Assembly (NCBI GenBank): GCA_964016885.1
Contig: OZ024744.1
Span: 102,610,001 to 102,674,000 of the forward strand
Reading direction: 5' to 3'
DNA from: Eledone cirrhosa
Taxonomy: Eukaryota
DNA: 64,000 nt
Below, one piece after another: positions 1,533 through 60,086 of the stretch. Numbering within the stretch: position 1 is the stretch's first letter; each line of letters starts with the position of its first letter. The position numbers were made by a program, and so were the translations under genes. Below the pieces are notes generated by a model. The model was given only the letters and a program-made list of their open reading frames with translations, was not told where the DNA came from and made no database searches.

Positions 1533-1745
1533 TTAAGATAACAGATTAAAGTTTAAGCAAAGAAGCGCTGCTTTCACCCTTAACGGGATAGAAGATCCCG
1601 TTAAGGGTGAAAGCAGCGATTTTTTGCTTAAACTTTAATCTGTTATTTTAATAAATATTTGCTCTACGGTTCTTATATATTTGATATATATTTATCCTTA
1701 TCGAGCCCTCTTTGGATTTTAGTCTTCAAATTTATTATTATTACT
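1533..1745. repeat. Fold-back insertion with hammerhead-like motif and one-sided tail (family also at 7965-8043, 53358-53545, 61646-61720)
   Basis: Arms ~1533-1588/1595-1652; agaaga-tccc-gttaa-ggg-tgaaa motif; tail 1653-1745; TA-flanked. Confidence 0.65.
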
Positions 1746-2677
1746 ATATATATATATATATATCATCATCATCATAATCTTCGTTTAACGTCCATCTTCC
1801 ACGCTAGCATGGGTTAGACTATATATATATATATATATATATATATATATATATATATATATATATACACATACATTCATGCATGCATACATGCATATAC
1901 ACATACCTACATACATACATGACATACATACATACATACATACATACATACATACATACATACATACATATATGATGGCTTCCCCCTCGTTATTGAGTAT
2001 GACCATTGCACAATATAGCATTATTAATATGTTATTGTGAAATGCTTGAGCGTGAATTTTTTTTTTAAAGTGAGTCAATCCCACTCTCTGAGCGACAGTA
2101 GCTATAACACGAAAAGAAGAAAAGATCAACATCATCGGTAACTACTGAGCTGCAGGTTTTATGTTGGAGTTATCCCAGTTTCCTGAGTTGCCTTCTCCTA
2201 GAACAAAGGTTCTCAACGGGGGGCATATGCACCACCAGGAGGCGTTTCGGAACTCCAGGGAGGCGTTTGGGAGCAAGGGGGCATTAGGGGGGGCGTTTGG
2301 AGCTTTGGAGTGCACTGGAAGGCTCTTTACTTTGGTAAGTTTTATAAGCCATATCTGTATGTCTTTGAGACAGCCAGTGTGAATACATTTGAATGAGCAT
2401 GCACACAGCATAACTATGGTCTGACCGCAGCTGTGAGCAGGTGTGCAGGCGTGTCTAGACATTAACCGGCAATTGAGATCCTACCAATGGAAAAACCCAG
2501 TCAACAGGTTCAATGACACTTCAATCGCAGCCAATTAAAATTTTGTCTTTCATTCACCGATAACAATGTATTTCATGTCTGAAATTATTGACTCAACCGT
2601 AACGAGTTAACACTATGTAGATCTATTTTATTCCCTATTGTATAAATAATATTACAAATAAAAAAAACACAGAAGCG

Positions 2678-2952
2678 GGTAGCACACACATCTAGGACCG
2701 CATACAACACATAATCAGATAATACACACATCTAGGATCATATACAACACATAATCAGGTAATACACACATCTAGGACCACATGCAACACATAAGGAGGT
2801 AGCACACACATCAAGGACCACATACAACACACAGGCAAGTAATACATACATTTAGGACCACATACAACACATAAGCAGGTAATACATACATCTAGGACTA
2901 CCTACAACACACAGGCAGGTAATACATACATCTAGGACCAAATACAACACAT
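2678..2952. repeat. ~40-bp minisatellite, about 7 copies, inside hAT element
   Basis: Unit like ggtaatacacacatctaggaccacatacaacacataagca repeated in tandem. Confidence 0.9.
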
Positions 2953-2965
2953 TGTATCATGTGCT

Positions 2966-4016
2966 ATGGACGACGCTAGAGAAATGGTCGGCCAACATAA
3001 GGGTTTCGTCACTCTTCTGAAGAGAGAAAATCTATCTGTATTTGTTGTTCATTGTGTCATTTATCGACAACACTTGGCTGTGAAGAAACTCAGCAAGCCA
3101 CTGAGCAAGTCCTTGCAGGTGGCCCTTGATGTCATCAATTTTATCAAACGGCATTCCCTCAATGAACGAATTTTTCGGCAAATGTGCCAAGATAATGACG
3201 AAGAATTCGTTAAGTTGCTCCTTCATAATGAAGTGAGGTGGCTTTTAAAGGGCAAGTGCCTTACTCACTTCTTTGAACTGTTCGACTCTATCATTGAGTT
3301 TCTGCGAGGACGCATCACAGAACTGTACAAGAAAACCCTTGATGTGAGGCAAAACTGCGCCTACCTCACCGACACCTTTGACAAATGCAATAGCGTCATT
3401 TTGGCTTTGCAGGGGAAGAAGATCACCTTGCTTAAAGCAAGGAATGCTGTGAAAACATTCCTGGCCAAATTGAATGTCATCGAAAGGAATCTTTGTTGAC
3501 GGAATTCTATAATTTTCCTAGTGTCGCCAATGTTCAAAACATTGTAAGCGATGACCAACTCCAAATTTATACCGCTCACCTCCGTGCGGTACAAGACAAC
3601 ATGAGAGAACGGTTTGTCGACCTTTTGCCGATAGACATCCCAATGTGGGTAGCAGATCCCTTCATAGCTAACGTCGATGATTTGGACGTTATATTTCAGG
3701 AAGAATTCATTGAACTTCAAGCAGATTACATGATCAAAATTAGATTTCCCAAAATAGGTGAACCCCTTTTTTTGGATGCAAGAGGAAATTCAGCGTCGAT
3801 TTCCACACCTACATGGCAGAGGCTAAGAGATTTGCTCTGCCTTTTCCAAGCTCATACTTAGTCAAGAGGAGGTTTGGTGCTGTTTCCAGACTGCACAGTA
3901 AGGCTCGCAACCGCTACAATGTAATTACATGTGGAGATCTCCGGCTACATCTTACGAAAATCCAGCCTGACGTCAAAGAGTTAGCTAGACTCCATAAAGT
4001 TCAAGGGTCCCATTGA
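2966..4016 (+). pseudogene. Buster-type hAT transposase C-terminal two-thirds, frameshifted
   Basis: Motifs HCVIYRQHL, LLLHNEVRWL.KG, AYLTDTF, PFPSSYLV.RRF, DLRLHLT.IQPD across three overlapping ORFs. Confidence 0.9.
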
Positions 4017-4806
4017 AATGAGGTCAAAGTTAAAGTAAGTTGATTTATCCAAAAACTTAGATATGCTATTGTTACAAAACAAACTTAACACATTTTATTT
4101 GTAGTTGCAGTCTGACTGGACTGGAAACCATCTACTACAATTCACTTACTCATTTGTTGTATATATTTTACCATTTACTAATAAATATACCCTCCCGCGT
4201 GGTCATGAAAACCCTCTTCCGTGGTCTCTAAGCTCACAAAGCAGAGGAGACATCAAGTTAGATATCAACATTTATTCTGTCTGTTTCATTAAAGGGAAAA
4301 TTGGAAAGCTTTGAAATTATATAATTGCCACTTTCTTTCAGATAAGAGCACTTTGGATAGGCAGAGTTGCTCTTGTATAAATGTTCAAAATAGTTGGTAT
4401 CGCCTGGTGGGAATATAACAAATTCAACTGGTCCTTATTCATAAAAAAGAACATTTATGTTCCTTTTTTTGAAATTTATATATTTCCTTTCAAGGAATGT
4501 ATACTCTCAGCTGCCTGCAATGGTATCTTTGGAAAATTGTTAATCAATTTTTTAATAATCTACTGATATCAAAATCAGTAGTATATTGAAAAATGGAAAA
4601 ATAGGGGGGGGGGGGGGGGGGGTTCGTGATTTCGAGGGACAAAAGGGGGCGTTTGGCCTAAATGGGTTGAGAACCTGTGTCCTAGAAGAATGCCCTGACA
4701 AAGGCTAGGGGTCCTTCACTCCCAGTGGTTTAACTGTGCGATCGCGTATCCAGCCCGATTATTTCTATTTCCCCGCACATATACATACACATGTATACAT
4801 GTATAC

Positions 4807-5091
4807 CAGTGGCGAAGGGTAACCTGGAAAGCAGGGCATGCAGTCCAATCGCCATGGCGGAAAGTGGGGCTGTGCAGCCTACACCCCCACCCCCCACCCC
4901 AATTCCCTCTAAATGACCCTCCCGGTCAAAGCCGCATGTAATGTTATCTAGTGTGTGTGTGTTATCTTTTTATGTGTCTACGTTTTAGTAAGCAGCCAAA
5001 ATTCTGCTTGCTTCAACCGACGCAATTGATCAACTCAAGATTCTATAACGCATGCACTGCATGTGTTGCATGCACAGACCCTTCGCCCCTG
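4807..5091. mobile_element. hAT-type MITE
   Basis: TIRs cagtggcgaagggt/acccttcgcccctg; 8-bp TSD atgtatac/ctgtatac (7/8 match). Confidence 0.8.
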
Positions 5092-58879: not shown

Positions 58880-59213
58880 TCATCATTTCATTTTACGTCC
58901 GCTTTTCCCTGCTTGCAAGGGTGGGACGGGAACTGATGCTGGCTTGATTTCTACAGCTGGATGCCCTTCCTAACACCAACCTCATTTACAGTGAGTGCTG
59001 GGTGCTTTTTTGCCGTGGCACCTCCACGACCACTTTGCAGTGGAATGATAGGGACCCCAGCCCCTATCATCTCATTTCTACAGCTGAGTAAACTGGAGCA
59101 ATGTGAAATAAAGTGTCTTGCTCAAGGAAACAACACATCACCCGGTCTGAGAATTGAACTCACAACCTTTCGATTGCAAGCCCAATGCTCTAACCACTAA
59201 GCCATGTGCCTCC
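58880..59213 (-). mobile_element. SINE family B, full length
   Basis: Matches family B. Confidence 0.88.
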
Positions 59214-59217
59214 ATAT

Positions 59218-59545
59218 ATATACGATATTAAATAAATGGAAACTATATTTATAAAACCATATTTATTTCATTATACATATTTCGGGGATACCAAATTAAA
59301 ATATGGCATGCCTTCGTCAGATAAAATACAATATATAAACAGTTATATTGTATTTTATCTGACGAAGGCATGCCATATTTTAATTTGGTATCCCCGAAAT
59401 ATGTATAATGAAATAAATATGGTTTTATAAATATAGTTTCCATTTATTTAATATCGTATATCTACTCCAAAAACTTGTCGAGTGCTTTATATCAGTTATA
59501 AAATATTTACTTGTTGTATCCCAACAATTTTAAATAAAACTTTTG
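59218..59545. mobile_element. Fold-back Penelope-like remnant with 118-bp arms and tail
   Basis: Arms 59218-59335/59344-59461, 8-nt spacer; tail 59462-59545. Confidence 0.82.
59353..59413 (+). ncRNA. Type I hammerhead ribozyme (mirror copy on minus strand 59266-59326)
   Basis: TTTTAT-CTGACGA-A-GGcATGCCA..TGGTAT-CC-C-GAAAT-ATGT-ATA-ATGAAA. Confidence 0.85.
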
Positions 59546-59580
59546 CATATATAGATATATATATATATTTAATATAGAAA

Positions 59581-59631
59581 GGCTTCTACAGGACTAGAAC
59601 TGTTTCATTCCAGAGAAATCATCAGGAAGCC
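59581..59631 (-). ncRNA. Hammerhead variant with displaced helix I, in fold-back 59568-59748
   Basis: GGCTTC-CTGATGA-TTTC-tctg-GAAT-GAAAC-AGTTCTA-GTC-ctgta-GAAGCC. Confidence 0.75.
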
Positions 59632-60086
59632 CTGAAATGAAACAGTTCTAGTCCTGTAGAAGCCTTTCTATATTAAATATTTATACTCTGCTTTGTATTG
59701 AGTACTTTACTTACTGTGGTTACCCCCAATTGCACCCAGGATAAACTTATATATTTATATATATCATCATCATCATTTTACGTCCGCTTTTCCCTGCTTG
59801 CAAGGGTGGGACGGGTCTTATTCAGCACAGCATAATGTGGCCGTGTAGGTAATACGGTAAATGTAATGTGGCCGTGTAGGTAACACGGTAAAAACCTCCC
59901 AGTCCACACTGTAAACGTGGTTGGTGTTAGGAAGGGCATCCAGCCATAGAAAACTGCCAGACAGTCCTATACGAGCAAGACAACCAATCTTACCTCAAGT
60001 GGGAAAATTCCCATCCAAACCCATGCAAGCGTGGAAGATGGACGTTAAACAATGATGATGATGATGATGATATATATATATATATT

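Follow-up and report, generated by a model that had tools for sequence, protein, structure and literature searches.

The window, a 64,000-nt stretch of the Eledone cirrhosa genome, holds a head-to-head inverted insertion of a family here termed F1, which spans positions 24154..27274 and is bordered by (TA)n on both sides. The arm with a one-sided tail lies on the minus strand and terminates at a site designated B, and the arm on the plus strand terminates, tail-less, at site A. The 110-nt tail (24154..24263, minus strand) is the 5' leader of the following monomer, running from site A to site B, and carries a bulged hairpin, H1 (24220..24260, minus strand), positioned 3 nt 3' of site A. A hammerhead core (CTGATGA...GAAA) is predicted approximately 155 nt upstream of H1 (24383..24415, minus strand; core only), with a mirror copy at 27123-27155 (plus strand), and the portion of the 5'-truncated ORF that encodes the C-terminal GIY-YIG endonuclease occupies 25756..26163 (plus strand), mirrored at 25375-25759 (minus strand).

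Judged by their sequence features, the insertions in the window are Penelope-like elements (PLEs) of the Hydra clade residing in (TA)n, and the PLE identity proposed in an earlier sequence-only reading is upheld by the ORF motifs of F1, the definition of the Hydra clade and a predicted TERT-like fold. F1 has a single ORF, a 785-aa frame combining a telomerase-related reverse transcriptase (RT) with a GIY-YIG endonuclease, and partial tandem (pLTR) as well as inverted 5'-truncated copies with an optional tail are present, both being features of the endonuclease-bearing (EN+) PLEs. Pfam assigned no family to the F1 protein, and for a model of its relative P0006 (pLDDT 92) the top PDB matches found by Foldseek were TERTs. 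The F1 translation shows RWK, DKT, a CxCX5C linker, and CxxC and CxH around a C-terminal endonuclease, and (TA)n is the insertion target. According to Craig et al. 2021 (PMC8557442), these same motifs define the Hydra clade, which also has (TA)n targets, a hammerhead, tandem and inverted copies and a one-sided tail; however, the tails here are longer (~55-115 nt vs 30-40 nt), as is F1 itself (3.6 kb vs under 3 kb). Features of the Naiad and Chlamys groups are absent from F1, whose endonuclease is C-terminal rather than N-terminal and whose motif is DKT rather than DKA, and F1 has CxCX5C rather than the Neptune-type CX2-5CxxC linker. Helitron/Helentron or MITE ends were considered and rejected, as the arms hold the PLE ORF and predicted hammerheads in sense orientation. 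Hammerhead cores were found, with a full type I fold predicted, by eye, only for the family of the 40939 and 59569 insertions. In an Rfam scan of the window a tRNA-like match (59147-59204) alone passed the gathering score among the 150 of 181 matches listed, and ARAGORN identified 0 genes in the window.

The sequence-only reading had drawn attention to a plain CTC...GAG hairpin at sixteen sites, and all 16 strings are present at their positions and on their strands. What it missed were a bulge and a conserved 3' flank: the motif is a bulged stem of the form RCTC-stem-loop-stem-T[TCA]-GAGY-RCT, and the loop is, as originally claimed, free in length, such that the hairpins range from 16 to over 40 nt. 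Tailed inverted insertions on the plus strand lie at 1534..1744 (short; H1 at 1661-1706; read-through relatives carry the second hairpin, H2, described below, and a Hydra-type ORF), 21594..21800 (short; H1 at 21741-21760 with a single-T bulge; predicted hammerhead core at 21640-21661, minus strand), 40939..41132 (short; H1 at 41071-41089; predicted cores at 41005-41027, plus, and 40975-40997, minus), 59215..59554 (H1 at 59464-59483; predicted cores at 59359-59399, plus, and 59280-59320, minus) and 59569..59755 (short; H1 at 59685-59703; same family as 40939), and on the minus strand at 9333..9942 (H1 at 9413-9442). The remaining hairpins, classed as H1 apart from the H1-type ones at 11209, 13486 and 22303 and the uncertain 53165, are those at 7463..7483 (plus strand, with a TA bulge), 52446..52472 (minus strand, with a predicted hammerhead core at 52555-52608, minus strand), 11209..11232, 21913..21938 (kept in the relative L242) and 22303..22323 (all minus strand), and 56173..56196 (minus strand), which belongs to an abundant family whose read-through relatives carry H2 and for which 4339 pattern matches were counted genome-wide as copies, the pattern being matched inside the tail; the H1 at 17787..17810 (minus strand) is of the same family. 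Two sites require separate mention. The hairpin at 13486..13507 (minus strand) belongs to a read-through copy whose nearest 400 nt contain no (TA)n; in the relative L220 the element gives way to (TA)n immediately 5' of the hairpin, which is also kept in the 75%-identical L203. The long-loop variant at 53165..53241 (plus strand) is an uncertain member, and its relatives read GGGT for GAGT.

Not every feature ascribed to these sites held throughout. An inverted arm ending at a TA run accompanies 7 of the 16 hairpins (41070, 59684, 59463, 21741, 1661, 9412 and 24220); the partner arm of 7463 is truncated, that of 52445 is truncated or lacks a TA end, that of 17787 is doubtful, and none was found for 22303, 53165, 56173, 11209, 21913 and 13486. 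At 15 of 16 sites the hairpin start is followed, 60-133 nt on, by a (TA)n run; 13486 reads on without one. Nor are the sixteen sites independent, 41070/59684 and 17787/56173 being family pairs.

The motif recurs beyond these sites and in excess of chance. Tails were collected blind to the motif, from inverted repeats that abut (TA)n at one end and extend on one side by a further 30-200 nt (n=35); 15 of the 35 contain it, whereas the antisense strand gives none and no shuffled set more than 2. In the window it begins within the first 32 nt of 6/11 tails (antisense 0; mean over 1000 shuffles 0.11), and in 600 kb of other stretches of the genome within the first 32 nt of 9/24 (antisense 0; shuffle mean 0.15), the maximum over 1000 shuffles of the two sets being 2. 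A scoring model trained on metagenome hairpins alone recovers 10 of the 16 earlier-listed sites among 19 window matches, and of its 57 top matches in the 600 kb, 31 sit 30-90 nt ahead of a (TA)n run, vs 5.6% of all GAG positions. The cross-family character claimed for the motif applies within the Hydra clade, where it is conserved, but does not extend to a Neptune-type, (TA)n-targeting PLE family of the same genome (L224 and L230, with a Neptune-type linker), from which it is absent. A general signal of (TA)n-targeting PLEs was accordingly rejected, with the motif in 0/6 Neptune-type tails.

These results confirm that the motif is real. It is half of a larger pattern, one member of a conserved pair of hairpins. 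In full-length elements there are two: H1 follows the tail-less end A immediately on its 3' side, and H2 does the same for the tail end B, for which reason H2 is not visible in the window. In the tandem copies L031 and L050 the tail, which is the element's 5' leader, continues into H2 and the 785-aa frame. Of 44 non-redundant leaders taken from metagenome contigs, 27 have at least two copies (antisense 0/44; shuffles ~0.03 per set), spaced 55-83 nt apart, 12 have one and 5 have none. A relaxed descriptor was used for these counts because the strict one, in which three flanking pairs are demanded, misses H2, whose upper stem is looser; with the strict descriptor, 0, 1 and 2 copies are found in 7, 26 and 11 of the 44 leaders. 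H2 was also predicted and then found for three of four window families tested (those of 24220, 56173/17787 and 1661); for the 41070 family no read-through copy with H2 was found among 11 matches. In most leaders H2 lies a few tens of nt ahead of the start codon.

The insertion junctions are tied to these hairpins. Across eight reference families, 70 of 72 TA-followed (TA)n junctions, 54 of the 72 stemming from one family, fall at -8..+1 nt of H1 or H2, with a modal junction-to-hairpin offset of 2-6 nt in 14 of 17 family-sites and microhomology of 1-5 nt. The claim that the hairpin lies on the sense strand just 3' of a TA junction stands, and the case for an element 3' of the priming site gains weight, in that the tail end B has its own copy directly 3'; with two hairpins and two candidate priming sites, and the tail as the spacer between them, the original picture of one of each was incomplete, and its interpretation overall is partly supported. 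Among 21 F1 sequences, all eight two-ended insertions join an A end to a B end, as do four distinct insertions of the 56173 family, and no A+A or B+B insertion was found among the F1 and 56173 insertions examined. In three of the eight mapped F1 insertions (the window copy, L041 and L050) neither arm could have been copied from the other, and both ends must therefore have been templated separately. Snap-back copying as a general source of both arms was rejected on the same evidence. The arm ending at B lacks H2, which must accordingly act on the template.

Covariation was assessed by anchored column tests because MAFFT did not align the 5' arms, and the lower stem yields little covariation because it served as the anchor. 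The H1 upper stem covaries: its three pairs above the bulge, where pairing was not demanded, are paired in 31, 27 and 24 of 32 (p=0.0002 for each), the first being T-A in 17 and C-G in 13. On a quick protein tree of metagenome proteins only, these pairs show 7 parsimony switches; a test that takes the tree into account falls short of significance (4 pairs in agreement, 0 opposed, p=0.125), and high mutual information is also seen for one off-register pair of columns. The sequence-only reading had placed the covariation at the outer A-T/G-C pair, which outside this genome is the weakest covarying position (G-C in 28/32), the strong signal lying above the bulge. The H2 upper stem is poorly paired (15/32 at the second pair). 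Wobble counts for G.U vs A.C (16 vs 17 and 3 vs 4) give the sense strand no advantage, and the antisense version of the hairpin folds slightly better in 42 of 64. On their own the hairpins are weak: the H1 of F1 lies outside the minimum-energy fold predicted for its surroundings (z -1.5), and H2 scores z +0.2.

We consider it probable that each of the two leader hairpins, a few bases 3' of one TA end, docks one RT, and that the pair primes both strands of the (TA)n target. A read-through RNA spanning the 3'UTR, hammerhead, A, H1, B, H2 and ORF would serve as template. The endonuclease would cut (TA)n, and each 3' end would anneal through 1-5 nt of alternating U/A; two copies of the protein, probably a dimer, would each recognise one hairpin by the invariant lower stem, the bulged U and the ACU on the 3' side; and the two cDNAs would be joined head to head, yielding an inverted repeat in which the A-to-B spacer (the tail, holding H1) appears on one arm only. 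More specifically, the hairpins may form a twin initiation signal, in which a dimeric RT-endonuclease would hold two similar RNA hairpins and prime the two cut strands simultaneously, a few bases 5' of each hairpin. To this version we assign an even chance. If true, the twin hairpins would account for the long-known one-sided tails and for why PLE insertions are inverted, and would represent a distinct mode of starting retrotransposition.

The best-surviving alternative, though an unlikely one, is that the hairpins are single-stranded DNA sites for the GIY-YIG endonuclease, with a sense-strand DNA intermediate cut at the TA just 5' and the ends thus cut rather than primed. Sequence data do not separate RNA from DNA. 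Craig et al. 2021 (PMC8557442) attribute the tail to resolution by the endonuclease, and Frangieh et al. 2024 (PMC11167929) cite work on D. virilis Penelope in which the endonuclease requires the tail when acting on plasmid DNA. Bacterial Ssn GIY-YIG nucleases, moreover, read hairpins in single-stranded DNA (the NTS) by sequence and structure, likewise with a fixed stem and a free loop (PMC11893778), although these are stand-alone nucleases without an RT and bear on this alternative only. Against cutting, the short insertions (e.g. 40939-41132) end at B with arms of ~60 nt, such that an H2-bearing DNA intermediate must be made and then lost; the three F1 insertions with non-copied arms also weigh against it, as does the finding that both tail ends of an anole element are RT start sites on RNA in vitro (PMC11167929). 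Still less likely is a role in RNP assembly or translation control, in which the protein would bind its own leader and starts at the nearest UA would be a side effect. The proximity of H2 to the start codon and the spread of junction offsets over 2-12 nt suit this reading, but each end is tied to its own hairpin even though the H1-H2 spacing varies from 55 to 115 nt, and other UA dinucleotides of the AU-rich leaders go unused.

More doubtful again is that, under the direction of the hairpins, the RNA is cleaved or terminated just 5' of them, leaving transcripts that end at A and B and are primed there in the manner of ordinary non-LTR elements. The same geometry is predicted, and RNA-seq read ends of the anole element coincide with its start sites (PMC11167929); yet its RT starts internally on uncut RNA, the element here already has a predicted hammerhead upstream of A, and no Rfam ribozyme or other family reaches gathering level over the sites among the 150 of 181 matches listed. 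A duplicated double-stranded DNA binding site for a promoter or host factor, or chance, is largely refuted: the core is nearly invariant and self-complementary, but the loop length is free, inner pairs covary, and shuffle and antisense controls are near zero.

The proposed mechanism has a close parallel in the anole Poseidon element, whose protein (PAc), predicted to be a dimer, cuts and extends both target strands, with two internal RT starts that bound the tail and a requirement for RNA 3' of those starts (Frangieh et al. 2024, PMC11167929). That in vitro work located the start sites but not what specifies them, and reported, for this one element, neither a conserved or duplicated motif nor a rule of one hairpin per site. 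The motif described here, kept across proteins ~40-55% identical and occurring once behind each start, names a likely start signal. The Poseidon RT is described as initiating inside an AC-rich stem loop without homology to the cut DNA, whereas the UA starts here match (TA)n. The annealing step that we infer differs in this respect, which counts against the mechanism.

Telomerase RNA has elements bound by TERT, including a template boundary element and CR4/5 or a three-way junction. The likeness to PLEs is one of function, a related RT (TERTs being the top Foldseek matches) working with a structured RNA that sets the copied region, and homology of the RNAs is not implied; telomerase copies one short template repeatedly, with its boundary element 5' of the template, whereas here two like hairpins lie 3' of two starts. 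If the mechanism is correct, it would be a second case, beside telomerase RNA, of a structured RNA placing the start of a telomerase-related RT, and the hairpin would be a portable RNA tag setting that start point. Small bulged stem-loops are also recognised by their own RTs to start copying at the 3' termini of LINEs and SINEs (eel UnaL2) and, as epsilon, in hepadnaviruses. The LINE stem-loop is single, 5' of the start and copied, and epsilon is single and templates from its bulge, in contrast to the paired hairpins 3' of their starts described here.

We found no description of the motif in the literature, within a search that covered subscription papers and Repbase thinly and for which the supplementary RNA folds of PMC11167929 may bear on novelty; in the portion of Craig et al. 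2021 (PMC8557442) available, a leader hairpin is not described and the word 'hairpin' occurs 0 times. In annotation, the hairpin can serve to mark where Hydra-clade elements and those derived from them truly end. By eye, no clear copy is seen in the Hydra-1_Obim consensus, and the motif is visible in published consensus sequences from coral and sea cucumber.

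The window lies within a 3.0-Gb animal genome and contains 106 (TA)n runs together with long inverted repeats, the longest of which (24264-27274) bears a truncated GIY-YIG frame on both arms. Used as a genome query, this repeat gave 150 scored matches with identities of 99-100%, and many of these fell within a 785-aa frame. The protein translated from that frame displays RWK, DKT, a CxCX5C linker, CxxC and CxH, which mark the Hydra clade of PLEs in the available text of PMC8557442, and by these protein motifs the family of the window insertion at 24154..27274 (F1) is assigned to that clade. 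A Pfam search with the F1 protein returned no family; for the relative P0006, the first matches to the predicted structure were TERTs.

The F1 tail is the element's own 5' leader: in the tandem copies at loci L031 and L050 of the same genome, the 3'UTR passes through a TA site, A, into a 110-nt tail and then into the ORF. Inserted copies stop either at A, the tail-less end, or at B, the TA site at the tail end, and a bulged leader hairpin lies just 3' of each (H1 after A, H2 after B). Two clean outward ends were present in 8 of the 21 F1 sequences examined, all eight pairing A with B; the family named by the window hairpin site 56173 yielded five A+B pairs among 20 loci, two of the five being the same place. 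Nine F1 insertions were mapped; both arms were visible in eight, with the A arm longer in four and the B arm in four, and in three of the eight (the window, L041 and L050) neither arm is copyable from the other. A copy of the 41070 family at L262:1460-1700 has its tail region as three 83-nt repeats, suggesting that copying jumped on the template from B to a point shortly ahead of H1.

The sequence-only reading had listed 16 CTC...GAG hairpin strings in one-sided tails at (TA)n. All 16 are present, and they have more in common than those triplets: by eye, the fuller motif comprises RCTC, an upper stem, a free loop, a 3'-side T[TCA] bulge, GAGY and, often, RCT. The proposed placement opposite a TA-ended partner arm held at only seven of the 16 sites, and at 13486 no (TA)n lies within 400 nt downstream. 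One further candidate, outside that list, occupies 61126-61167 on the plus strand of the window, with a (TA)n run 74 nt beyond it. Tails were also picked blind to the motif: 664 kb yielded 202 inverted-repeat pairs, of which 35 ended at TA on one side and had an extension of 30-200 nt. The motif was found in 6 of 11 such tails in the window and 9 of 24 elsewhere, with none in antisense and at most two in shuffles. Six of the 20 motif-less tails are of Neptune type; among the others, by eye, several are variants or have an internal TA run that cuts them, and some represent unrelated repeat pairs. At 8790-9301 and 810-1468 in the window, inverted repeats flanked by TA and extended briefly on one side likewise lack the motif.

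A metagenome scan with a 60-protein alignment recovered 77 loci (39-53% identity to the query) whose leaders carry the motif twice. Among the 51 leaders of at least 150 nt, 44 were non-redundant, with zero, one, two and three copies in 5, 12, 26 and 1, respectively, and a spacing of 55-83 nt between copies; the corresponding antisense counts were 42, 2, 0 and 0, shuffles gave about 0.03 double matches per set, and a stricter descriptor found zero, one and two copies in 7, 26 and 11. In F1, H2 follows directly after the tail end. H2 was then predicted for three further window families (56173, 1661 and 41070) and sought in the genome. Read-through copies carrying H2 made up six of ten matches for 56173, and nearly all of 100 listed among 308 matches for 1661 show the same H2, with a Hydra-type ORF downstream at one of four and six of six loci checked, respectively; the 11 genome matches of 41070 included no H2 read-through. 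Among published consensus sequences inspected by eye, the coral Hydra-2_Amil and the sea cucumber Hydra-1_Ajap and Hydra-2_Ajap have the motif, Hydra-1_Amil and Hydra-1_Crog have a variant of it, and Hydra-1_Obim lacks a clear copy. Loop length is free, since in other intact Hydra families of this genome (L188-L217) the H2 loop is expanded to ~70 nt.

Pairing was assessed with anchors that demanded none, giving 58 leaders, 50 of them non-redundant and 33 two-anchor, of which 32 were used after exclusion of one lying at a contig edge. Above the H1 bulge, the three pairs form in 31, 27 and 24 of these 32 leaders and draw on two to six types of pair (p=0.0002), and 28 of the 32 have G-C as the outer pair; in H2 the first pair is firm (32/32, C-G in 29) and the second loose (15/32). 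Other results weigh against this: an off-register control was likewise high in mutual information, a tree-aware sign test over 31 proteins did not reach significance (4 agree, 0 oppose, p=0.125), even though seven parsimony switches are required on the protein tree, and folding energies are weak.

Junction positions were obtained by aligning 33 reference leaders to genome loci and counting internal ends, beginning 45 nt ahead of H1. Of 90 such ends, 72 are followed by (TA)n, and 70 of these 72 fall between -8 and +1 relative to H1 or H2; one outlier, at -22, reflects a mis-set anchor (-5 by exact walk) and the other lies 54 nt beyond H2. The 72 junctions come from eight references, 54 being F1. 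An exact walk, with a visible range of only -14..+5, placed modal offsets at 2-12 nt over 17 family-sites (2-6 nt in 14), with 1-5 nt of alternating T/A common to junction and target.

Each hairpin appears to act on the template, because H2 is missing from the B-ended arm and H1 from the A-ended arm. The simplest account, which we consider probable, is that insertion would involve two priming events, each positioned by its own 3' hairpin and likely served by its own protein copy. The main rival, that the endonuclease recognises the hairpin as ssDNA, as with Ssn nucleases (PMC11893778, available text), seems to us improbable; wobble counts showed no strand preference and did not separate RNA from ssDNA. 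An earlier proposal invoked self-priming on antisense RNA, with no mention of a hairpin in the accessible portion of that source (PMC3846280). As for two priming events, the available text on the anole PLE (PMC11167929) shows a tail bounded by two internal RT start sites, cutting and extension of both target strands, a requirement for RNA to +172 and a main start at +111-118. By eye, the anole template sequence printed there has a UCUC/GAGA-closed hairpin that begins ~2 nt to the 3' side of this mapped start; as a counterpart of the Hydra leader hairpins it is a lead only.

Both the clade of the element and the model of two starts are already known. For the pairing of hairpins in the leader and the rule of one hairpin per end, no description was found in the literature searched, including the available part of bioRxiv 10.64898/2026.07.22.740005, although supplementary figures or subscription papers could mention them; a window scan gave, among the matches listed, no Rfam counterpart for the paired hairpin.

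The genome also harbors a second (TA)n-targeting PLE, whose linker is of Neptune type. Its ends follow the A/B architecture as well, with a tail of 56 nt, but the Hydra-type motif is absent at both A and B; the motif therefore tracks the Hydra protein rather than the target. This abundant element (L230-L237, L218-L229) has a frame of up to 1281 aa with an N-rich insert, its ends both read AATAT|CG, and folding revealed no hairpin common to the two. Another (TA)n insert, at L094:5990-8036, consists of 311-bp units repeated in tandem, has a hammerhead core and an inverted structure, and finds similar ends in L107 and L060; from these sequence features it is retrozyme-like and non-autonomous, and its repeats hold no clear hairpin copy by eye.

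Elsewhere in the window, frames at 2936-4016 and 38101-39583 resemble transposases, which we take to be of hAT type, and broken frames at 45352-48279 resemble an LTR-retrotransposon (protease, RT and integrase motifs, by eye). The tRNA-like matches at 59147-59204 and 61559-61622 fall within an abundant dispersed repeat that is likely a SINE, and a fragment of a repeat forms a 142-bp tandem array at 16297-17629.
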